NCBI RefSeq assembly: GCF_003334355.1
Contig: NZ_QOWP01000001.1
DNA from: Escherichia coli
GTDB lineage: Bacteria; Pseudomonadota; Gammaproteobacteria; Enterobacterales; Enterobacteriaceae
Length of the DNA: 64,000 bases
Strand: one strand, 5' to 3'
The notes below the pieces were generated by a model that saw only the letters and a list, made by a program, of their open reading frames with translations, made no database searches and was not told the DNA's origin. Shown piece after piece: positions 3,270 through 44,848 of the stretch; position 1 is the first letter of the stretch, and the number at the start of each line of letters is the position of its first letter. Made by a program: the position numbers and the translations under genes.

Positions 3270-4157
3270 TCAGGAGAGATATTTATCGAACCATTTCAGT
3301 GTCCTTTGCCAGGCAAGATCGGCGGCAGATTTGTCATAACGGGGCGTGGAATCATTATGGAATCCGTGATTAACCCCCGGATAGATATACGCCTCATAAA
3401 CCTTATTATTGGCTTTCAACGCCGCCTCGTAAGCAGGCCAGCCCTCGTTGATTCGGGTGTCCAGTTCCGCGAAGTGGAGTAGTAAAGGCGCTTCAATCTT
3501 CGCCACATCGGCAGTGGGTGCCTGACGACCATAAAACGGCACCGCGCAGGCCAGTTCCGGATACGCGACAGCCGCCGCGTTCGATACGCCACCGCCATAG
3601 CAAAATCCGGTAATACCCACTTTGCCTGCCGCTTGCGGATAGCGTTGCATAAACTCAATTGCGGCAAAGAAATCATTCATCAGTTTGGTTGGATCAACCT
3701 GCTGTTGCAGCTCACGACCTTTATCATCATTTCCCGGATAACCTCCAACGGAACTTAAGCCGTCAGGTGCCAGGGCGATATACCCCGCCTTCGCCACTCG
3801 CCGTGCCACATCTTCGATATACGGATTCAGTCCACGATTCTCATGCACCACCACCACGGCTGGCGTTTTGCCGCTCATTTTTGCGGGTTTCACCAGATAA
3901 CCCCGTACCTCGCCGTGACCATTTGGCGAAGGATACGTGATGTACTCAGCAACAATCTCCGGGTCGGTAAACTCTACCTGAGTCGCCAGCGCATAATTTG
4001 GCTTGAGCAAATCAAACAACGCTAATGCCGTCATCCCGCCCACCGCATACTTCGCCGCAAGGTTGAGGAACTCACGTTTCGAGATTTTCCCGTGAGCGTA
4101 ATAGTCGTAGTAATCCAACAACTCTTGTGGGAAATCTTTGGCGGTTAAACGCGGCAT
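3270..4157 (-). CDS. yghX: Dienelactone hydrolase family protein (YghX-like), uninterrupted frame
   Basis: Continuous ORF; chosen start is the ATG at 4157 (MPRLTAKDF...) preceded by GAGGAG about 7 nt upstream; alpha/beta-hydrolase-like GxCxG motif (GFCYGG) and HGF near the C-terminus. Confidence 0.8.
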   Translation of the reverse strand: MPRLTAKDFPQELLDYYDYYAHGKISKREFLNLAAKYAVGGMTALALFDLLKPNYALATQVEFTDPEIVAEYITYPSPNGHGEVRGYLVKPAKMSGKTPAVVVVHENRGLNPYIEDVARRVAKAGYIALAPDGLSSVGGYPGNDDKGRELQQQVDPTKLMNDFFAAIEFMQRYPQAAGKVGITGFCYGGGVSNAAAVAYPELACAVPFYGRQAPTADVAKIEAPLLLHFAELDTRINEGWPAYEAALKANNKVYEAYIYPGVNHGFHNDSTPRYDKSAADLAWQRTLKWFDKYLS

Positions 4158-4313: not shown

Positions 4314-5354
4314 ATGGTCTGGTTAGCGAATCCCGAACGTTACGGGCAGATGCAATACCGCTATTGCGGAAAAAGCGGTTTACGCCTGCCCGCGTTATCG
4401 CTCGGTTTATGGCACAATTTCGGTCACGTTAACGCGCTGGAATCACAGCGTGCGATCCTGCGTAAAGCGTTTGATTTGGGCATTACGCACTTTGATTTAG
4501 CCAACAATTACGGGCCGCCTCCAGGAAGCGCAGAAGAGAACTTTGGTCGCCTGCTGCGGGAGGATTTTGCCGCTTATCGCGATGAACTGATTATCTCTAC
4601 CAAGGCTGGCTACGATATGTGGCCCGGCCCTTACGGCTCTGGCGGTTCACGTAAATACCTGCTCGCCAGCCTCGACCAAAGCCTGAAGCGTATGGGGCTT
4701 GAGTATGTCGATATCTTTTACTCTCATCGCGTCGATGAAAATACGCCGATGGAAGAAACCGCCTCTGCGCTGGCTCATGCGGTACAAAGCGGTAAGGCGC
4801 TGTATGTCGGGATCTCCTCTTACTCGCCAGAGCGGACGCAAAAAATGGTCGAGTTGCTGCACGAGTGGAAAATTCCGCTTTTAATTCATCAACCTTCGTA
4901 CAATTTACTGAACCGCTGGGTGGATAAAAGCGGCCTGCTGGATACCCTGCAAAATAACGGCGTGGGCTGTATTGCCTTTACTCCTCTGGCTCAGGGATTG
5001 CTGACCGGAAAATATCTCAACGGCATTCCTGAAGATTCACGGATGCATCGTGAAGGGAATAAAGTTCGTGGCCTGACGCCGAAAATGCTCACCGAAGCCA
5101 ACCTCAACAGCCTGCGCTTATTGAATGAAATGGCACAGCAGCGTGGACAATCAATGGCGCAAATGGCGTTAAGCTGGTTGCTGAAAGATGATCGCGTGAC
5201 GTCGGTATTGATTGGTGCCAGCCGTGCAGAGCAACTTGAGGAGAACGTGCAGGCGCTGAATAATCTGACATTTAGCACCGAGGAGCTGGCGCAGATTGAT
5301 CAGCATATCGCCGATGGCGAGCTGAATCTGTGGCAGGCGTCTTCCGATAAATGA
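4314..5354 (+). CDS. gpr: L-glyceraldehyde 3-phosphate reductase (aldo-keto reductase)
   Basis: 346-aa ORF MVWLANPERYGQMQYRYCGKSGLRLPALSLGLW...; matches remembered Gpr/YghZ; GGAAAGGAGAGG Shine-Dalgarno upstream. Confidence 0.9.
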   Translation: MVWLANPERYGQMQYRYCGKSGLRLPALSLGLWHNFGHVNALESQRAILRKAFDLGITHFDLANNYGPPPGSAEENFGRLLREDFAAYRDELIISTKAGYDMWPGPYGSGGSRKYLLASLDQSLKRMGLEYVDIFYSHRVDENTPMEETASALAHAVQSGKALYVGISSYSPERTQKMVELLHEWKIPLLIHQPSYNLLNRWVDKSGLLDTLQNNGVGCIAFTPLAQGLLTGKYLNGIPEDSRMHREGNKVRGLTPKMLTEANLNSLRLLNEMAQQRGQSMAQMALSWLLKDDRVTSVLIGASRAEQLEENVQALNNLTFSTEELAQIDQHIADGELNLWQASSDK

Positions 5355-13953: not shown

Positions 13954-14880
13954 ATGAAAATAATACTTCTGTTTTTAGCAGCCCTGGCAAGTTTTACCGT
14001 ACACGCACAGCCCCCCTCACAGACCGTAGAACAAACAGTCCGGCATATTTATCAGAACTATAAATCAGATGCCACTGCCCCTTATTTTGGTGAAACCGGA
14101 GAGCGGGCGATAACTTCTGCGCGTATTCAACAGGCGCTTACCCTGAACGACAATCTTACGCTGCCGGGCAATATTGGCTGGCTGGATTATGATCCGGTTT
14201 GTGATTGTCAGGATTTTGGCGATCTGGTGCTAGAAAGCGTTGCGATAACCCAAACTGACGCCGATCATGCCGATGCCGTTGTGCGCTTTCGTATCTTTAA
14301 AGATGATAAAGAAAAGACCACGCAGACACTGAAAATGGTGGCGGAAAATGGTCGTTGGGTCATTGACGATATTGTCAGCAATCATGGCAGCGTCTTACAA
14401 GCAGTTAATAGCGAGAATGAAAAAACGCTGGCCGCTTTAGCTTCGTTGCAAAAAGAACAGCCGGAAGCCTTTGTTGCCGAACTCTTTGAACATATTGCTG
14501 ATTATAGCTGGCCGTGGACGTGGGTGGTTTCCGACTCTTACCGCCAGGCGGTTAATGCCTTCTATAAAACCACCTTCAAGACGGCCAATAATCCCGATGA
14601 AGATATGCAAATAGAACGGCAATTTATTTACGACAATCCGATCTGTTTTGGCGAAGAGTCGCTATTTTCACGCGTTGATGAAATTCGAGTCCTGGAGAAA
14701 ACCGCCGATTCCGCCCGCATTCATGTTCGTTTTACGCTGACCAATGGCAACAACGAAGAGCAAGAACTGGTTTTACAGCGGCGCGAAGGCAAGTGGGAAA
14801 TCGCTGATTTTATCCGCCCGAACAGCGGCAGCCTACTTAAGCAGATTGAGGCAAAAACTGCCGCCAGATTAAAGCAATGA
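13954..14880 (+). CDS. yqhG: Secreted protein YqhG (function unknown)
   Basis: 308-aa ORF with N-terminal signal peptide MKIILLFLAALASFTVHAQ. Confidence 0.85.
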   Translation: MKIILLFLAALASFTVHAQPPSQTVEQTVRHIYQNYKSDATAPYFGETGERAITSARIQQALTLNDNLTLPGNIGWLDYDPVCDCQDFGDLVLESVAITQTDADHADAVVRFRIFKDDKEKTTQTLKMVAENGRWVIDDIVSNHGSVLQAVNSENEKTLAALASLQKEQPEAFVAELFEHIADYSWPWTWVVSDSYRQAVNAFYKTTFKTANNPDEDMQIERQFIYDNPICFGEESLFSRVDEIRVLEKTADSARIHVRFTLTNGNNEEQELVLQRREGKWEIADFIRPNSGSLLKQIEAKTAARLKQ

Positions 14881-22414: not shown

Positions 22415-24022
22415 TCAATGTGCCTTGATATACAACTCTTTGCTGTAGACATAATCCTGGGGATTATGCAGCGGAAAACCGCCAACGTAGGGTTTAAGCA
22501 GTTTGATTAACGGCTGATAGTAGATAGGAATCAGCGGTGCCTGTTGGTTGATGATCACTTCTGCCTGCTGATACAACGCATTACGCTTTGTCGCATCAGT
22601 GATCTGCGTGGCCTGGTTTAGTAAGGCGTCATACTGCGCATTTTTCCAGTGACCGACGTTTTCTTCACTATCGCTTTTGAGCGTGTTCAGGAAGCTGGAA
22701 GCATCATTGTACGTCGCATCCCACGACTGCCGAGACAGCATGAAATCACCGGCTCGTCGGGCATCAAGATAGGTTTTCCACTCCATTGTGCGCAGCGTCA
22801 CCTGTGCACCCAGCCATTTTTTCCATTCGGAAGACAACGCTATCGCGGTCTTTTCATGCAGATCGTACTTGTTGTAGAACAGCTCAAAGCGTAGCGGATG
22901 AGAGGCGTCGTATCCCGCCTGTTTCAGCAAGGCTTTTGCCATCGCGACGCGCTCACTCATTGGCTTTTGCAGTTCATCGAACGTCGTCGCGCTAAAGCCT
23001 TTTACCTCTGGCGGCGTCAGCGTGGTTGCGGGCGTTCTCAACCCCAGTACCTTTTGCGCAATAAGCTGTCGATCAACCGTAAGATATAGCGCCCGACGCA
23101 CTCGCACATCGTTAAATGGCGGTTTCTCAAGGTTGAAGTTGTAATATTCGCTGTTCAGACGCGGAATAATTCGTAGCTCGCCAGGCAGTGATTTTTCAAT
23201 GGCGGGAATTTGCTGCGCCGGAACCCAGGTGAGATCGACCTCTCCCGCGCGATAGCGGTTATAGCCGGTGACCGAATTATCTAGCGCCAGATACTCAACC
23301 TGTTGCAATACTGTATGTTGCGCATCGCGGTACTTTGGATTTTTGCGTGCAGTAATCTTTTCGTTAACTACCCACTGATCAAGCACAAAGGCACCGTTGT
23401 AAACCATGTTCTCTGGCTTACTCCAGCTATCGCCATGTTTAGCGATGACATGATGAGGAACCGGGAACAGCGTCGGCCAGGCGAGCATCGTCGTGAACCA
23501 AGGAACCGGCTGCTCAAGCGTAACTTCAAGAGTACGATCATCCGTCGCTTTGACACCCAGCGATGTAACATCTGCTTTACCCGCAACAATAGCTGCGGCA
23601 TTGTTAATGTGCGCCTGTGCCAGATAGCCAGCAAAAGGGCTTGCCGTTTTCGGGTCAACCGCGCGCTGCCAGCCGAGGACAAAATCCTCTGCCGTCAGAG
23701 GCTGACCGTCGGACCACTGCAAACCGCTACGCAGATGGAAAATATAGCGCTTGCCGCCGTCCAGTATCTCCCAGCGTTCAGCCTGAGCGGGCTGCACCTG
23801 GCCTTCACCGTCCATCCATACCAGACCTTCAAACAGATCCAGCACAATCTGCGCGGCAGTATTCTCCTCCACCTTTTGCGGGTCGAGCGTACCTGGGTCG
23901 CTATGATTGTTGTAACGAAAGACTTGTTGCGGGGCGAGCGGTGTGTTGGCGGGAACGTCAGCAGCGTAGAGAGGAGCCGCACTTACCAGGCTGACCAGCC
24001 ATAATAAATTTCGCGTATACAT
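22415..24022 (-). CDS. ygiS: Periplasmic solute-binding protein YgiS (peptide/oligopeptide ABC-type, family 5)
   Basis: ORF trimmed to the ATG giving 535 aa (MYTRNLLWLVSLVSAAPLYAADVP..., signal peptide). Confidence 0.9.
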   Translation of the reverse strand: MYTRNLLWLVSLVSAAPLYAADVPANTPLAPQQVFRYNNHSDPGTLDPQKVEENTAAQIVLDLFEGLVWMDGEGQVQPAQAERWEILDGGKRYIFHLRSGLQWSDGQPLTAEDFVLGWQRAVDPKTASPFAGYLAQAHINNAAAIVAGKADVTSLGVKATDDRTLEVTLEQPVPWFTTMLAWPTLFPVPHHVIAKHGDSWSKPENMVYNGAFVLDQWVVNEKITARKNPKYRDAQHTVLQQVEYLALDNSVTGYNRYRAGEVDLTWVPAQQIPAIEKSLPGELRIIPRLNSEYYNFNLEKPPFNDVRVRRALYLTVDRQLIAQKVLGLRTPATTLTPPEVKGFSATTFDELQKPMSERVAMAKALLKQAGYDASHPLRFELFYNKYDLHEKTAIALSSEWKKWLGAQVTLRTMEWKTYLDARRAGDFMLSRQSWDATYNDASSFLNTLKSDSEENVGHWKNAQYDALLNQATQITDATKRNALYQQAEVIINQQAPLIPIYYQPLIKLLKPYVGGFPLHNPQDYVYSKELYIKAH

Positions 24023-24154
24023 GGTATTCCTTACCGGAGAAATTATAAGCCCAACAACAATACGCCTGTGGCATTGTTCGCTCAAACTTATCGCGAGTGA
24101 TTTGGCTCACACTCCGGTAAAGAAAAAAGCGAGTTGCCCCCGCTTTTCCATTAA

Positions 24155-24550
24155 TTAACGGATTTCATTCAATAGTTCTGGATGCTTATCCAGAACACGT
24201 AAAAGTTTGATTGTGGAAGGATGAGGTTGGGCATTGCCTTTTTCGTAACGCGAAAACGCATTTACACCTCCCCCAAAAATTTCGCTTGCCTCTTTTTGGG
24301 TAAGAGAGAGCTTTTTTCGAACCTTCACTATAAATTCAGGTGCCACTGTTTCGGCATTCACCGAAGCCCGAAATGCCTTTACTTGCGCCATGAAAGCATC
24401 TGACTCTTCTTTATTCATGATGCTCTCTTCGCAATGGACACAATATAAACCGTGGATACCTTTCAATACTGTTTTTCGTCCACGGAAGGTGTATGGAATA
24501 TCTTTAATGCCAGAAACCATTTCTCCCTGGTGGCAAACCGGACATTTCAT
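24155..24550 (-). CDS. mqsA: Antitoxin MqsA (zinc-ribbon plus HTH-XRE)
   Basis: 131-aa ORF MKCPVCHQGEMVSGIKDIPYTFRGRKTVLKGIHGLYCVHCEES... (CxxC...CxxC zinc ribbon); 1-nt gap after mqsR. Confidence 0.95.
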   Translation of the reverse strand: MKCPVCHQGEMVSGIKDIPYTFRGRKTVLKGIHGLYCVHCEESIMNKEESDAFMAQVKAFRASVNAETVAPEFIVKVRKKLSLTQKEASEIFGGGVNAFSRYEKGNAQPHPSTIKLLRVLDKHPELLNEIR

Positions 24551-24551
24551 A

Positions 24552-24848
24552 TTACTTCTCCTTAAACGAGACGATCAGTACGTCATGAATTACCGTAATT
24601 TTAAGATAAACCTGGCCTGTAACAAGCCTGGGTCTGTAAACATCCTGCCAGATAGTATGATCAGAGTAGGTGGTCATGCTTTTATAAAAGTCGCTCTCTG
24701 ATAATCCAATGATAACATTACACATACCATCAAAATCCAAACCTAACTCATCTGCATTTAACAGGGCACTACGTGTTGTACGAACTTGCCCGGCATTGAC
24801 AAGTTTTTTAACCTGACTCAAACGTGTATATGGTGTGCGTTTTTCCAT
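24552..24848 (-). CDS. mqsR: mRNA interferase toxin MqsR (RelE-like)
   Basis: 98-aa ORF MEKRTPYTRLSQVKKLVNAGQVRTTRSALLNADELGLDFDGM...; toxin gene precedes antitoxin, the reversed order typical of mqsRA. Confidence 0.95.
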   Translation of the reverse strand: MEKRTPYTRLSQVKKLVNAGQVRTTRSALLNADELGLDFDGMCNVIIGLSESDFYKSMTTYSDHTIWQDVYRPRLVTGQVYLKITVIHDVLIVSFKEK

Positions 24849-24878
24849 AACCCCCGCCTCCCTGTTACTTTAGTTATA

Positions 24879-24921
24879 ACCTAAAAGGTTAATTACAGCA
24901 ATGAAAAAGCACCTAAAAGGT
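24879..24921. promoter_or_regulatory. Two MqsA operator palindromes in the mqsRA promoter
   Basis: ACCTAAAAGGT occurs twice (24879..24889 and 24911..24921), fitting the MqsA operator form ACCT-N3-AGGT, about 31 and 63 bp upstream of the mqsR start. Confidence 0.75.
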
Positions 24922-25052
24922 TAGTTAGATGTACGGAGATAGTGACCACACAAAACGTATTCTTTAAGGAAAGTGATTGACCATATAAGAAAGTGGCGCA
25001 TTAGTAGCGCCAGTTTGAAGCAGGAATTTATAAGGGAAGCTGGAGTCAGGCA

Positions 25053-26791: not shown

Positions 26792-28137
26792 AATTTACCC
26801 AACGTCTTAGTCTGCGCGTCAGGCTGACGCTAATCTTTTTAATTCTGGCCTCGGTGACCTGGCTGCTTTCCAGCTTTGTCGCCTGGAAACAAACAACGGA
26901 TAACGTCGATGAATTGTTCGACACCCAACTGATGCTGTTTGCCAAGCGGTTAAGTACGCTCGATCTCAACGAAATCAACGCGGCGGATCGCATGGCACAG
27001 ACGCCAAATAGATTAAAACACGGTCATGTTGATGACGATGCGCTGACCTTTGCCATCTTTACCCACGACGGCAGAATGGTCCTTAATGATGGCGATAACG
27101 GAGAAGATATTCCCTATAGCTATCAACGGGAAGGTTTTGCTGACGGGCAACTGGTCGGTGAAGACGATCCTTGGCGTTTTGTCTGGATGACCTCACCTGA
27201 TGGCAAATATCGCATCGTTGTTGGCCAGGAATGGGAATACCGTGAAGACATGGCGCTGGCGATTGTTGCCGGGCAATTGATCCCGTGGCTGGTCGCACTG
27301 CCGATTATGTTAATCATCATGATGGTACTACTGGGTCGTGAACTCGCGCCGCTGAACAAACTGGCGCTGGCACTACGTATGCGTGACCCTGACTCGGAAA
27401 AACCACTAAACGCGACTGGCGTACCCAGCGAAGTGCGGCCACTGGTTGAGTCGCTAAATCAACTGTTCGCCCGCACACATGCGATGATGGTTCGTGAACG
27501 ACGCTTTACCTCCGACGCAGCTCACGAACTTCGTAGCCCGTTAACGGCGCTGAAAGTGCAAACCGAAGTTGCGCAGCTCTCTGACGATGATCCGCAGGCG
27601 CGGAAAAAAGCACTGCTCCAATTACATTCCGGGATCGATCGCGCTACTCGTCTGGTTGATCAACTGCTCACGCTATCGCGGCTGGACTCACTGGATAACC
27701 TTCAGGACGTCGCGGAGATCCCGCTTGAAGATCTCCTGCAATCGTCGGTGATGGATATTTACCACACGGCGCAGCAGGCGAAAATTGACGTGCGACTGAC
27801 ACTCAATGCCCACAGCATCAAACGCACCGGGCAACCGCTATTGCTAAGTTTGTTGGTGCGAAATTTGCTGGATAACGCCGTGCGCTACAGTCCACAGGGC
27901 AGCGTGGTAGACGTCACGCTGAATGCTGATAATTTCATCGTGAGGGATAACGGCCCCGGTGTGACACCAGAGGCACTGGCGCGAATTGGCGAACGCTTCT
28001 ATCGCCCACCCGGACAAACCGCTACCGGCAGCGGGCTTGGGCTATCGATTGTCCAGCGAATCGCCAAATTGCATGGCATGAATGTTGAATTTGGGAATGC
28101 GGAACAAGGTGGATTTGAGGCGAAGGTAAGCTGGTAA
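26788..28137 (+). CDS. qseC: Sensor histidine kinase QseC
   Basis: 449-aa ORF; two transmembrane segments; H-box AAHELRSPL; 4-bp overlap with qseB. Confidence 0.95.
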
Positions 28138-28145
28138 CTTCTCTG

Positions 28146-28181
28146 TCTATGAGAGCCGTTAAAACGACTCTCATAGATTTT
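28146..28181 (+). terminator. Intrinsic terminator after qseC
   Basis: Stem TCTATGAGAG / CTCTCATAGA with a 12-nt loop followed by TTTT, in the 45-bp gap between convergent qseC and ygiZ. Confidence 0.6.
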
Positions 28182-28182
28182 A

Positions 28183-28515
28183 CTAATAGCAAAATATAAA
28201 CCGTCCCCAAAAAAGCCACCAACCACAAACCAGACAAATACCGAGCGAGAATACATATACCCAAAACTCGAACATTTCCCGCATAAAGAGTTTTCTTAAG
28301 ATAAGAATAATAAGTGGCGTAAGAAGAAAAAATGCTGCAATCATTGCTTGCAATATACGATCTTCGCCTGAAACGGAAGGTATACTGCAAATATTTCCTC
28401 CCGACTCAAGCATCCAGTCATACTTATTGAAAGCAAAAAAAGAATCTATTAACCAATAAGTAAGCATTATATATAGCAATGCTTCAAATATTGTTTTAAT
28501 TTTCTGCTTTAACAT
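28183..28515 (-). CDS. ygiZ: Small inner membrane protein YgiZ
   Basis: 110-aa ORF MLKQKIKTIFEALLYIMLTYWLIDSFFAF...; very hydrophobic; gene visibly AT-rich. Confidence 0.8.
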   Translation of the reverse strand: MLKQKIKTIFEALLYIMLTYWLIDSFFAFNKYDWMLESGGNICSIPSVSGEDRILQAMIAAFFLLTPLIILILRKLFMREMFEFWVYVFSLGICLVCGWWLFWGRFIFCY

Positions 28516-28833
28516 ATATCAGTACGCTCATAAAAATCCATTTATAATTATCAACATGACACGTTGATACTTTCATCTTTTACTTATTCAAAGCCATATT
28601 TTCAATCCCCAAAAAAACCGAACCAAACGTGTAAATTATTCCGGTGCGAGTAAGAATTATGAGGAATGGCTATCAGTATTGTCATTTTCAGAAAATATTT
28701 ATCCTGCATCGGTGAGTCAGAGCTAGATCAGACTTTTGCTAAATTCGCAAAAGACTTTGCACATTTTGCTAATTTCACCGTACCGCTCTGTGACGTACTA
28801 TAGTCGGCAAACGTCTCACTTTGAGGTTAAAAA

Positions 28834-29415
28834 ATGAGCAACACCCTGATTATCAACGGCGCGAAAAAATTCGCCCACTCCAATGGTCAACTGAACGACA
28901 CCCTGACCGAAGTCGCGGATGGCACACTGCGCGACCTCGGGCATGATGTTCGCATCGTTCGCGCCGACAGCGACTACGATGTCAAAGCGGAAGTACAAAA
29001 CTTTCTCTGGGCTGATGTGGTGATCTGGCAGATGCCAGGCTGGTGGATGGGCGCGCCGTGGACAGTGAAAAAATACATTGATGATGTATTCACCGAAGGT
29101 CACGGGACGCTGTATGCCAGCGATGGTCGTACCCGCAAAGATCCGTCGAAAAAATACGGTTCCGGCGGCCTGGTACAGGGCAAAAAATATATGCTTTCTC
29201 TGACCTGGAACGCACCAATGGAAGCCTTCACCGAAAAAGATCAGTTCTTCCACGGCGTTGGCGTTGACGGTGTGTATCTGCCGTTCCATAAAGCAAACCA
29301 ATTCCTCGGTATGGAACCGCTGCCGACATTTATCGCTAATGACGTGATAAAAATGCCTGATGTTCCCCGCTATACTGAAGAATATCGCAAGCATCTTGTG
29401 GAAATTTTTGGTTAA
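28834..29415 (+). CDS. mdaB: NADPH:quinone oxidoreductase MdaB
   Basis: 193-aa ORF MSNTLIINGAKKFAHSNGQLNDTLTEVADGTL...; matches remembered MdaB. Confidence 0.95.
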   Translation: MSNTLIINGAKKFAHSNGQLNDTLTEVADGTLRDLGHDVRIVRADSDYDVKAEVQNFLWADVVIWQMPGWWMGAPWTVKKYIDDVFTEGHGTLYASDGRTRKDPSKKYGSGGLVQGKKYMLSLTWNAPMEAFTEKDQFFHGVGVDGVYLPFHKANQFLGMEPLPTFIANDVIKMPDVPRYTEEYRKHLVEIFG

Positions 29416-34315: not shown

Positions 34316-34336
34316 ATGGCACGTAACGCCAACCTT
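34316..34336 (+). promoter_or_regulatory. Candidate MarA/SoxS/Rob box upstream of tolC
   Basis: ATGGCACGTAACGCCAACCTT fits the marbox pattern AYnGCACnnWnnRYYAAAY reasonably; tolC is a known mar/sox/rob regulon member (established knowledge). Confidence 0.45.
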
Positions 34337-34418
34337 TTGCGGTAGCGGCTTCTGCTAGAATCCGCAATAATTTTACAGTTTGATCGCGCTAAATACTGCT
34401 TCACCACAAGGAATGCAA

Positions 34419-41717: not shown

Positions 41718-42269
41718 ATGTCTGCTTTTAAAAAGTCACTTCTTGTTGCTGGTGTAGCAATGATTCTTTCCAATAACGTGTTTGCTGATGAAGGTCACGG
41801 TATTGTTAAATTTAAAGGTGAAGTTATCTCTGCTCCATGTTCTATTAAACCAGGTGACGAAGATTTAACTGTAAATCTGGGTGAAGTAGCAGATACCGTA
41901 CTGAAAAGCGATCAGAAATCTTTGGCGGAACCTTTCACTATTCACCTGCAGGACTGCATGCTGAGTCAGGGTGGAACTACTTATTCAAAAGCGAAGGTTA
42001 CTTTCACTACAGCAAATACCATGACGGGTCAGTCTGATCTTCTGAAAAATACCAAAGAAACTGAAATCGGCGGCGCCACTGGCGTTGGCGTACGTATTCT
42101 GGACAGCCAGAGCGGCGAAGTAACTTTAGGTACTCCGGTAGTAATTACGTTCAACAATACCAACAGCTATCAGGAACTGAATTTCAAAGCTCGTATGGAA
42201 TCCCCAAGCAAAGATGCCACCCCGGGCAACGTTTACGCTCAGGCTGACTACAAGATTGCTTACGAGTAA
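41718..42269 (+). CDS. ygiL: Fimbrial major subunit (type 1 pilin-like) YgiL
   Basis: 183-aa ORF with signal peptide MSAFKKSLLVAGVAMILSNNVFA; AAAGGA Shine-Dalgarno; AT-rich upstream region. Confidence 0.85.
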   Translation: MSAFKKSLLVAGVAMILSNNVFADEGHGIVKFKGEVISAPCSIKPGDEDLTVNLGEVADTVLKSDQKSLAEPFTIHLQDCMLSQGGTTYSKAKVTFTTANTMTGQSDLLKNTKETEIGGATGVGVRILDSQSGEVTLGTPVVITFNNTNSYQELNFKARMESPSKDATPGNVYAQADYKIAYE

Positions 42270-42319
42270 TCGCATTTGGCCGGGTTCACCCGGCCACATC
42301 ATTAACGGATTAATGATAA

Positions 42320-44827
42320 GTGGATCAGATGTATAAAAAATTAAAATTAACCACAATAAGCGAATTGATTAAAAATATTTATTGTTCATTATCCGTTATC
42401 ATCATTGGTTGTGCGTCAGCTTATGCCGTTGAATTCAACAAAGATTTAATCGAAGCCGAAGATCGTGAAAACGTTAACCTTTCCCAATTTGAAACTGATG
42501 GCCAATTACCCGTCGGCAAATATTCACTAAGCACTCTGATTAATAATAAGAGGACGCCAATCCACCTTGACCTCCAATGGGTATTAATTGATAACCTAAC
42601 TGCAGTTTGCGTGACACCAGAGCAATTAACATTATTAGGCTTTACTGATGAGATTATTGAAGAGGCTCAGCAAAACCTGATCGATGGTTGTTACCCTATC
42701 GAAAAAGAAAAACAAATTACAACTTATCTCGATAAAGGGAAAATGCAATTATCCATATCTGCACCTCAGGCATGGTTAAAATACAAAGATGCAAACTGGA
42801 CGCCTCCTGAACTTTGGGATCATGGTATTGCTGGGGCATTTCTTGACTACAATTTATATGCCTCTCATTATGCACCACATCAGGGCGATAATTCACAAAA
42901 TATAAGTTCCTATGGGCAGGCTGGGGTTAATCTTGGGGCCTGGCGCCTGCGTACTGATTACCAGTACGATCAGTCATTTAACAATGGCAAAAGCCAGGCG
43001 AACAACCTGGATTTTCCGCGTATTTATTTGTTTCGCCCAATCCCAGCAATTAATGCAAAACTAACTATAGGTCAATACGATACTGAATCCTCTATTTTCG
43101 ACTCTTTCCATTTTTCTGGCGTTTCGTTGAAAAGCGATGAGAATATGTTGCCGCCTGATCTACGTGGTTACGCACCGCAAATCACGGGTGTTGCACAAAC
43201 GAATGCAAAGGTCACTGTCTCACAGAACAACCGTATTATTTATCAAGAAAACGTTCCTCCAGGCCCATTTTCTATTACCAATTTATTCAATACATTACAG
43301 GGGCAACTGGACGTCAAGGTTGAAGAAGAGGACGGGCGCGTCACGCAATGGCAAGTTGCATCTAATAGCATTCCTTATCTGACGCGTAAAGGGCAGATTC
43401 GCTACACTACTGCAATGGGGAAACCGACCAGCGTTGGCGGCGATTCCTTACAACAGCCCTTCTTCTGGACCGGTGAATTCTCATGGGGTTGGCTGAACAA
43501 TGTATCCCTGTATGGTGGTTCAGTATTAACAAACCGTGATTATCAATCCCTGGCTACCGGAGTTGGTTTTAACCTTAACTCGTTGGGCTCATTATCCTTT
43601 GATGTCACGCGATCTGATGCTCAGTTACATAATCAGAATAAAGAAACGGGTTATAGCTACCGTGCTAACTATTCAAAACGTTTTGAATCTACCGGTAGCC
43701 AGCTCACTTTCGCTGGCTACCGTTTCTCTGATAAAAACTTTGTGTCGATGAATGAATATATCAATGACACTAACCATTACACGAATTATCAGAATGAAAA
43801 AGAGAGTTATATTGTCACGTTTAACCAGTATCTTGAATCATTGAGATTAAATACATACGTAAGTCTGGCTCGTAATACTTACTGGGACGCCAGCAGTAAT
43901 GTGAATTATTCATTATCACTTAGCCGCGATTTTGATATCGGCCCATTAAAAAACGTATCCACCTCACTAACATTTAGCCGAATAAACTGGGAAGATGACA
44001 ACCAGGATCAACTGTACCTAAATATTTCAATTCCCTGGGGAACCAGTAGAACATTGAGCTATGGTATGCAACGAAATCAGGATAACAACATTTCGCATAC
44101 TGCTTCGTGGTATGACTCTTCCGATCGAAATAATTCCTGGAGCGTTTCTGCTTCAGGCGACAATGACGAATTTAAAGATATGGAGGCGTCACTGCGCGCC
44201 AGTTATCAGCATAATACCGAGAACGGTCGTCTCTATCTCTCCGGTACATCACAGCGGGATAGCTACTATTCTCTGAATGCCAGTTGGAACGGTTCATTCA
44301 CTGCAACTCGCCACGGCGCCGCTTTCCATGACTATAGTGGTAGTGCTGACTCGCGTTTTATGATCGACGCAGACGGCGCTGAAGATATTCCGTTGAATAA
44401 TAAACGCGCGGTAACTAATCGGTATGGCATCGGAGTTATTCCATCAGTCAGCAGTTACATAACAACATCATTAAGCGTTGATACCCGAAATCTTCCAGAA
44501 AATGTGGATATCGAAAACTCGGTTATCACCACCACCTTAACCGAAGGTGCTATTGGCTACGCCAAACTTGATACCCGCAAGGGCTATCAAATCATGGGGG
44601 TTATTCGCCTGGCAGATGGTAGTCACCCACCACTGGGGATTAGCGTAAAAGATGAAACCAGCCACAAAGAATTAGGACTTGTTGCTGATGGCGGCTTTGT
44701 ATACCTCAACGGCATTCAGGATGACAGCAAACTTACTTTACGCTGGGGTGACAAATCTTGCTTTATTCAACCACCCAAGAGCAGCAACTTAACCACCGGA
44801 ACGGTGATTTTACCGTGTATTAGCTAA
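42320..44827 (+). CDS. yqiG: Fimbrial outer-membrane usher YqiG, uninterrupted
   Basis: 835-aa ORF from a GTG (first ATG at 42329); usher-sized with usher-like conserved region; continuous frame with no inserted element. Confidence 0.88.
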   Translation: MDQMYKKLKLTTISELIKNIYCSLSVIIIGCASAYAVEFNKDLIEAEDRENVNLSQFETDGQLPVGKYSLSTLINNKRTPIHLDLQWVLIDNLTAVCVTPEQLTLLGFTDEIIEEAQQNLIDGCYPIEKEKQITTYLDKGKMQLSISAPQAWLKYKDANWTPPELWDHGIAGAFLDYNLYASHYAPHQGDNSQNISSYGQAGVNLGAWRLRTDYQYDQSFNNGKSQANNLDFPRIYLFRPIPAINAKLTIGQYDTESSIFDSFHFSGVSLKSDENMLPPDLRGYAPQITGVAQTNAKVTVSQNNRIIYQENVPPGPFSITNLFNTLQGQLDVKVEEEDGRVTQWQVASNSIPYLTRKGQIRYTTAMGKPTSVGGDSLQQPFFWTGEFSWGWLNNVSLYGGSVLTNRDYQSLATGVGFNLNSLGSLSFDVTRSDAQLHNQNKETGYSYRANYSKRFESTGSQLTFAGYRFSDKNFVSMNEYINDTNHYTNYQNEKESYIVTFNQYLESLRLNTYVSLARNTYWDASSNVNYSLSLSRDFDIGPLKNVSTSLTFSRINWEDDNQDQLYLNISIPWGTSRTLSYGMQRNQDNNISHTASWYDSSDRNNSWSVSASGDNDEFKDMEASLRASYQHNTENGRLYLSGTSQRDSYYSLNASWNGSFTATRHGAAFHDYSGSADSRFMIDADGAEDIPLNNKRAVTNRYGIGVIPSVSSYITTSLSVDTRNLPENVDIENSVITTTLTEGAIGYAKLDTRKGYQIMGVIRLADGSHPPLGISVKDETSHKELGLVADGGFVYLNGIQDDSKLTLRWGDKSCFIQPPKSSNLTTGTVILPCIS

Positions 44828-44848
44828 AATTAATTCAGGATGAAACTA

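Follow-up and report, generated by a model that had tools for sequence, protein, structure and literature searches.

Tse3–Tsi3 (Tge1–Tgi1) and the other Tge/Tgi pairs, the Hcp-linked cargo modules (Hcp-ET) of Enterobacteriaceae, and the orphan immunity genes of type VI, contact-dependent inhibition and Rhs systems are the described systems closest to the locus analysed here. In the Tge/Tgi pairs, an effector without a signal peptide adjoins a type VI component and a small gene lies directly downstream of it. In the cargo modules, toxin and immunity genes come straight after an hcp gene that is separate from the main type VI cluster, and in the orphan systems the toxin and its delivery genes are lost and the antidote is kept under purifying selection. 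Our subject is ygiZ, a small gene between qseC and mdaB in a 64,000-nucleotide stretch of Escherichia coli DNA (the window), together with the AT-rich DNA that surrounds it. In the window ygiZ stands alone; in other E. coli genomes it is preceded by hcp and by a gene encoding a 236-amino-acid (aa) protein, here called X. We propose, with a probability of about 0.72, that positions 28138–28729 are the remnant of a mobile type VI hcp–X–ygiZ cassette, with ygiZ as its retained orphan immunity gene.

X resembles the Tse3 and Tge effectors in the absence of a signal peptide, in its position next to a type VI component and in the small gene directly downstream. However, X shares only 13% sequence identity with Tse3 and has no Pfam or PDB sequence match, it lies beside hcp and not inside the main cluster as in the Tge/Tgi pairs, and its partner is a polytopic membrane protein of the DUF2645 family rather than a soluble periplasmic protein. 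As in the Hcp-linked modules, the hcp gene lies outside the main type VI cluster and precedes the putative toxin and immunity genes, whereas here hcp and X are normally separate genes, and the X family is not among the toxin types named in one paper on Hcp-ET. With orphan immunity genes ygiZ further shares presence/absence alleles within a species and, in Citrobacter, recurrent decay of the toxin side; unlike those genes, it does not belong to an array but occurs singly at one fixed place in the chromosome, and its protective role is proposed here from sequence comparison.

A low-GC insertion between qseC and mdaB

The gene order of the segment is ygiW–qseB–qseC–ygiZ–mdaB–ygiN–parE. A first-pass annotation, made from the letters alone, had singled out ygiZ and the 318-bp ygiZ–mdaB spacer (28516–28833; mdaB starts at 28834) as an AT-rich block between GC-richer genes, and had suggested either an old horizontally acquired insert or a regulatory region bound by nucleoid proteins. 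The coordinates, strand and protein length that it gave proved exact, and its description of the composition was borne out among those 56 open reading frames (ORFs) of the window that are 100 aa or longer. Of these, ygiZ has the lowest GC content (0.342; mean 0.510, s.d. 0.047), the lowest third-position GC content (GC3, 0.333; mean 0.549, s.d. 0.080) and the lowest codon adaptation index (CAI, 0.502, rank 1 of 56 from the bottom; mean 0.692, s.d. 0.056, z = −3.4, with the window itself as the reference set). Both its GC content and its codon usage therefore fall outside the normal range. The amino-acid composition of the protein alone predicts a GC content of 0.43, indicating that the choice of synonymous codons is atypical too. 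The spacer has a GC content of 0.355 compared with 0.530 for qseC and 0.507 for mdaB, and sliding GC (200-bp windows) falls to 0.28.

Alignment of the window with the full-island allele of KE50 and the empty-site allele of UCPROB-002 located an insertion that includes ygiZ (Table 1). In the empty-site allele, the qseC stop codon is followed by GGGTAAG and ACTTTTGC..., with GGGTAAG running straight into ACTTTTGCTAAATTCGCAAAAG..., and the qseC–mdaB spacer measures 109 bp. A census of 5,426 complete E. coli genomes revealed three states that together cover 5,423 of them. The site is empty in 825 genomes, including an O157:H7 strain. About 3,336 genomes have the state of the window, with ygiZ alone (about 306 of them with a diverged variant of the upstream segment), and a match to the whole region was found in 3,329. 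A further 1,262 genomes, ST131 strains included, carry the full island, in which qseC is followed by minus-strand ygiZ, X and hcp and then by mdaB. The ygiZ-only and full alleles share identical junctions with the flanking DNA in the alignment. The full-form insert spans about 1.7 kb (GC 0.342), and its hcp, X and ygiZ genes (GC 0.33–0.35, GC3 0.26–0.31) are co-oriented, with gaps of 2 bp between hcp and X and 6 bp between X and ygiZ.

The site was also compared in 80 species-representative Enterobacteriaceae genomes recovered with MdaB. No cassette gene is present at the site in 76 species, and the qseC–mdaB gap computed from the alignments is 102–112 bp in 75; three other species gave a larger computed gap owing to a truncated QseC alignment. 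Representatives with the short spacer include E. coli, E. albertii, Salmonella, Klebsiella, Enterobacter and most Citrobacter. The only occupied sites among the representatives were those of Escherichia whittamii (ygiZ only) and of Citrobacter werkmanii and a Pseudocitrobacter (full trio). Absence of the cassette genes from 76 of the 80 species indicates that the empty site is ancestral, and it is essentially certain that 28138–28729 is an insertion. The segment combines atypical composition with presence or absence among close relatives, as a genomic islet does, and the presence of inserted and empty alleles explains the anomalous composition of ygiZ. The proposal of a horizontally acquired insert is thus upheld for this segment, which is missing from the 825 E. 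coli genomes and the 76 species. The 318-bp spacer, in contrast, is not the single AT-rich unit that had been described: 28516–28729 belong to the insert, and the remainder is the ancestral mdaB promoter.

Table 1. Positions of the insertion, its parts and the adjoining mdaB promoter elements in the window.
Feature	Position	Strand	Description
Low-GC insertion	28138–28729		592 bp, GC 0.343; delimited by the three-allele alignment; displaces about 7 bp of the ancestral qseC–mdaB spacer
Hairpin	28145–28178		Inside the insert, flanked by the stop codons of the convergent genes qseC and ygiZ; terminator-like; 15-nt arms, 93% complementary
ygiZ	28183–28515	minus	110 aa, DUF2645 protein, three predicted membrane helices; proposed orphan immunity gene
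Segment specific to the ygiZ-only allele	28516–28673		158 bp; stands in for X, hcp and the greater part of the sequence upstream of hcp
Right end of the insert	28674–28729		Also present, upstream of hcp, in full-island strains; aligns with KE50 4683–4764
Ancestral mdaB promoter and leader	28730–28833	plus	104 bp, GC 0.394; unchanged in empty-site E. coli
Inverted repeat (A)CTTTTGC-N7-GCAAAAG	28732–28753		Includes motif copy 1 as its left arm; directly upstream of the marbox-like site
Marbox-like site TTTGCACATTTTGCTAATT(T)	28756–28775	plus	2 mismatches to AYNGCACNNWNNRYYAAAYN; 3′ half is motif copy 2
Probable mdaB −10 hexamer TACTAT	28796–28801	plus	Conserved GTAnnAT; TAnnAT at least 90% conserved in 80 species

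The hcp–X–ygiZ cassette and its products

The effector candidate X (KE50 3423–4133) has an N-terminus without a hydrophobic signal peptide. The gene 2 bp upstream of it is an hcp, with a TIGR03344 score of 196.5 bits (cutoff 58.9), and this position, together with the existence of PAAR–X and RHS–X fusions, ties X to type VI delivery. Searched with a profile, a set of 1.84 billion representative proteins yielded 374 matches, in many of which the X domain is C-terminal in a longer protein. The N-terminal partners in 40 long proteins were eCIS_core (11), OmpA (4) and PAAR (2), as well as RHS repeats, PG_binding_1 and Ntox3. Such an architecture is that of a polymorphic toxin domain, and peptidoglycan-binding proteins are among the partners. 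Among PHROG families, X matched phrog_11932, a phage family of unknown function (E = 1.6e-27); it had no match in NCBIfam, and PADLOC was negative. The X domain is also found on Serratia, Rahnella and Cronobacter plasmids and, distantly, in Streptomyces and Nostoc.

Further analysis of 88 diverse members of the X family revealed four invariant residues (E82, G85, S112 and Q119) and a YNxG motif whose Y188 and G191 are at least 90% conserved. These residues resemble the E-S, G-x-x-Q and Y-N-x-G motifs of SLT domains, including the putative catalytic Glu. The Pfam SLT profile (PF01464) matched 2 of the 88 relatives at E ≤ 1e-3 and 8 at E ≤ 0.1 and did not match X itself, which places X on a distant branch outside the current Pfam SLT family. 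An AlphaFold model built on the 88-sequence alignment reached a predicted local distance difference test (pLDDT) score of 95 and superseded a poor first model from 25 close homologues (pLDDT 57.5). The predicted structure has a lysozyme-like or lytic-transglycosylase fold, for which the nearest solved structure is the Pseudomonas type VI muramidase Tse3. On this reading, a 236-aa effector family to which no Pfam entry corresponds would consist of Tse3-like glycosidases that act on the cell wall.

The cassette occurs at several other places. In Pectobacterium, hcp–X–DUF2645 lies between pagP and an eamA-family gene; in Serratia it is carried on plasmids, and in further Citrobacter genomes it occupies the qseC–mdaB site. 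Erwinia has X–DUF2645 between yfb genes, with no hcp called. An X homologue with 42% identity belongs to an hcp–X–109-aa trio, whose third product is small, hydrophobic and weakly similar to YgiZ, and in a vent metagenome X is followed by a weak DUF2645 match. A 361-aa PAAR–X fusion is likewise followed by a 100-aa DUF2645 protein, the stop and start codons overlapping. The adjacency of X and DUF2645 is kept in six genera, in a metagenome and after PAAR–X fusion, and its occurrence in both hcp and PAAR settings indicates that the pairing is independent of the delivery module. At the qseC–mdaB site in Citrobacter and a related metagenome contig, the cassette was found in independent states of decay: hcp cut to 112 aa, X split into 150 and 90 aa, or no hcp called. 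An intact 110-aa DUF2645 gene remains in each of these states, and decay of the cassette strikes the toxin side first.

A 325-aa metagenome protein (P0002, JGI) joins an Hcp domain (PF05638) to an X sequence of 97% identity; it could be a natural Hcp–toxin fusion, or an artefact of a frameshift or of gene calling. Literature searches on mdaB with hcp and the type VI secretion system, and on orphan hcp, found nothing on the qseC–mdaB locus. The Hcp2B operon of APEC (PMC5874247) lies at a different locus.

YgiZ matches Pfam DUF2645 (PF10840) over residues 13–109 (E = 1.3e-9), in agreement with the RefSeq annotation as a DUF2645 family protein. It is as hydrophobic as the first-pass annotation had claimed (grand average of hydropathy +0.90). 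Segments at about residues 55–75 and 84–106 exceed the 19-residue hydropathy threshold, a third helix at about 9–29 can be read from the sequence, and no long soluble domain is predicted. The Lys-rich N-terminus and an RKLFMR turn would lie in the cytoplasm, with the loop between the first two helices and the C-terminal cysteine in the periplasm. That loop (NKYDWMxExGDxICSIP, residues 30–47) is conserved, as is the C-terminal cysteine. The ratio of non-synonymous to synonymous substitution rates (dN/dS) is about 0.1–0.4 over all pairs and 0.33–0.42 between orphan alleles. Every sampled ygiZ-only genome has an intact annotated ygiZ ORF; truncated and extended variants occur in Shigella and some E. 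coli. No PHROG family was matched by YgiZ.

Expression data for ygiZ come from two published studies. One report describes a ygiZ promoter in the spacer: BglJ–RcsB activated a spacer–lacZ fusion, and mutagenesis served to map where it binds (PMC3950696). The loci at which that study tested repression by H-NS did not include ygiZ. In the other, ygiZ overexpression gave sabinene tolerance and was beneficial and not lytic in BL21; measurable induction of the gene was also found (PMC7181518).

The segment that lies upstream of ygiZ in the ygiZ-only allele had no blastn match in full-island genomes. Examined as a possible relic of X, it had no protein-level match to X by tblastn or protein hidden Markov model and showed weak colinear similarity to the X 3′ end (nhmmer E = 0.077; shuffled Smith–Waterman z = 1.6–4.0). 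The right end of the insert is missing from the empty-site allele.

Proposed orphan immunity and competing explanations

The position of ygiZ after the effector gene, the conserved pairing, its retention after loss of the toxin and the purifying selection acting on it point to YgiZ as the likely immunity protein of X, and the sequence data make ygiZ probably an orphan immunity gene for X in the window. In the mechanism that we propose, a cassette of hcp (secretion tube and effector carrier), X and ygiZ would have landed in the short qseC–mdaB spacer, and the lineage of the window would have lost hcp and X and kept ygiZ. Neighbouring cells armed with type VI secretion would inject X into the periplasm, where X would cut the glycan strands of peptidoglycan. 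YgiZ, seated in the inner membrane, would neutralise X on the periplasmic side through the 30–47 loop and the C-terminal cysteine. In ygiZ-only strains, the gene would be driven by the spacer promoter that responds to BglJ–RcsB. The role of YgiZ in immunity, its orientation in the membrane and the place where it neutralises X are all inferred. If the proposal holds, about 23% of complete E. coli genomes would be both armed and immune, about 61% would have immunity alone and about 15% would be sensitive, a three-way compatibility polymorphism at one locus that might influence how strains compete in the gut and urinary tract. It also provides a testable function for ygiZ, an uncharacterised inner-membrane gene of K-12, and for DUF2645, a Pfam family of unknown function.

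Several observations weigh against this interpretation. No experiment ties YgiZ to X or to type VI killing. X has no match in Pfam (SLT included) or PDB, by sequence or by profile; its enzymatic activity is predicted from fold and motifs, and its toxicity and type VI secretion likewise from the fold. Tsi3 and Tgi2, which have been solved with lysozyme-like type VI effectors, are soluble periplasmic proteins or lipoproteins. YgiZ, with three predicted helices, falls outside this Tgi type of inhibitor, and a three-helix membrane inhibitor exposing about 25 residues would be unusual. The similarity of the 158-bp segment to X is too weak to trace its origin there, so that the path from full island to ygiZ-only allele is incompletely reconstructed. 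The junction alignment and a repeat scan of 28100–28900 revealed no integrase or direct-repeat signature (no tRNA scan was made). A literature search found no mention of DUF2645, and none of the 23 papers mentioning ygiZ, judged by title or abstract, deals with type VI secretion. Last, BglJ–RcsB control (PMC3950696) and sabinene tolerance (PMC7181518) would also fit a general role in the envelope.

That role is the substance of one alternative, in which YgiZ belongs to the Rcs/BglJ regulon as a membrane protein of the general response to envelope stress, supporting membrane or cell-wall integrity, and its link to hcp–X is incidental or secondary. We consider it unlikely: a gene that 825 E. coli genomes and 76 of the 80 Enterobacteriaceae species lack does not serve a core envelope function, the located homologues follow an X-domain gene whatever the delivery module, and the overexpression phenotypes of small membrane proteins are unspecific. 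It is rather improbable, too, that ygiZ and its spacer are inert foreign remains, silenced by nucleoid proteins and heading to loss. The AT-rich composition of the block (GC 0.34), its strain-variable presence, the deletion of the partner genes and the truncated or extended variants in Shigella and some E. coli would all be expected of such remains, but the dN/dS between orphan alleles, the intact ORF in every sampled ygiZ-only genome, and the dedicated regulated promoter and measurable induction described in the two studies above argue for a gene in use.

Three membrane helices in about 110 aa beside a lysozyme-fold gene give the pair a superficial likeness to a holin and endolysin, and X matches a phage family. 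YgiZ might then be an accessory to X, either holin-like or a membrane chaperone that aids access to the cell wall or loading for export. This seems improbable to us, because ygiZ lies downstream of the enzyme gene and beside Hcp or PAAR, not in a phage lysis cassette, YgiZ has no counterpart among the PHROG families, and overexpression in BL21 was beneficial rather than lytic. Moreover, about 3,336 genomes keep ygiZ without X, as would be expected of an antidote and not of a helper. A purely compositional account, by which the low GC is a by-product of a hydrophobic protein rich in Phe, Ile, Leu, Tyr and Lys codons next to an AT-rich promoter, with no foreign origin, is very improbable. Promoters are generally AT-rich and the amino-acid composition does lower the expected GC of ygiZ, but the observed GC, GC3 and codon adaptation are the lowest of the 56 ORFs, and the segment is physically missing in empty-site strains and most related species, which already refutes this account.

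Beyond the orphan immunity reading of ygiZ, a wider and rather doubtful possibility is that DUF2645 proteins are polytopic antidotes of the inner membrane, a class of immunity protein that had gone unrecognised, and that their partner is an unnamed Tse3-like family, X, common to phages, type VI systems and extracellular contractile injection systems, with X acting at the membrane face and ygiZ giving standing protection to most E. coli. Were this true, the membrane-embedded antidote would imply that X attacks, for example, nascent or lipid-linked glycan strands at the membrane face and not the mature sacculus. Most E. coli, including laboratory strains that lack type VI secretion, would be protected against the roughly one quarter of strains with hcp–X.

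Transcription signals and other parts of the window

The hairpin inside the insert folds as RNA with −18.1 kcal/mol (z = −5.9 compared with shuffles) and is missing from the empty-site allele. A consensus terminator scan of 28050–28900 gave no call, as the hairpin has no clean T-run. An insert-borne hairpin between qseC and mdaB may uncouple mdaB from read-through of qseBC. Promoter-like matches in 28050–28900 were no commoner than in shuffles, and Rfam had no match in 27900–29000.

The near-duplicated TTTTGCTAA(A)TT motifs reported in the first pass are present in two copies, TTTTGCTAAATTC (28734–28746) and TTTTGCTAATTTC (28764–28776), which lie 30 bp apart and agree at 12 of 13 positions. 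Both are outside the insert, within the ancestral mdaB promoter, and a two-copy 13-mer could arise by chance. Across the 80 species, the TTTTGC cores and the entire second copy are nearly invariant, and a block ATTATTGC-N7-GCAAAAGACTTTGCACATTTTGC..ATTT is at least 90% conserved. The inverted repeat that contains the first copy has conserved arms and a variable 7-bp spacer in the same species, a pattern suggestive of a dimeric regulator site.

A search for MarA/SoxS boxes upstream of mdaB, recommended in the first pass, had a mixed outcome: a site with two mismatches is present, but its pattern is matched 22 times in the window compared with 16.9 expected. Because the pattern is not enriched, the support for this site comes from its near-invariance in the 80 species and from the membership of mdaB in the mar regulon, as given in PMC2989944, which cites Martin & Rosner 2002. 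Like mar/sox/rob promoters, in which a marbox adjoins or overlaps the −35 region, that of mdaB has a 20-bp marbox-like site, here 20 bp upstream of the conserved TAnnAT. Its two mismatches to the consensus and a match that is not statistically distinctive within the window set it apart from them, and mar/sox/rob control leaves the conserved inverted repeat immediately upstream unexplained. The TACTAT hexamer is the probable −10 element, and the marbox-like site, a candidate activator site, likely adjoins the −35 region of mdaB. The best marbox match in the window is elsewhere, at 34316–34334 (ATGGCACGTAACGCCAACC, one mismatch), some 80 bp ahead of tolC, which starts at 34413, consistent with tolC being a mar/sox/rob target.

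A second presence/absence polymorphism lies one gene away from the mdaB promoter: some E. coli, including KE50, carry genes for a MurR/RpiR regulator and an iron–siderophore ABC transporter between ygiN and parE, and in the window and two other compared sequences parE directly follows ygiN. Elsewhere in the window, a second low-GC patch (0.38–0.44) at 24000–25000 corresponds to the mqsR–mqsA toxin–antitoxin pair in the annotation of a matching genome; mqsA (ORF 24155–24550, minus strand) has a GC of 0.42 and GC3 of 0.36. At 41718–46664, four successive plus-strand ORFs (183, 832, 252 and 354 aa), which we take to be the yqiGHI fimbrial genes, have a GC of 0.38–0.43 and low codon adaptation. 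These ORFs are missing in strain VE-T9, where glgS leads directly to yqiJ and the sequence around ygiZ is otherwise identical, and they thus form a further accessory low-GC block. The yqhG gene (13954–14880), with a somewhat low GC (0.474) and GC3 (0.472), is another published BglJ–RcsB target (PMC3950696).
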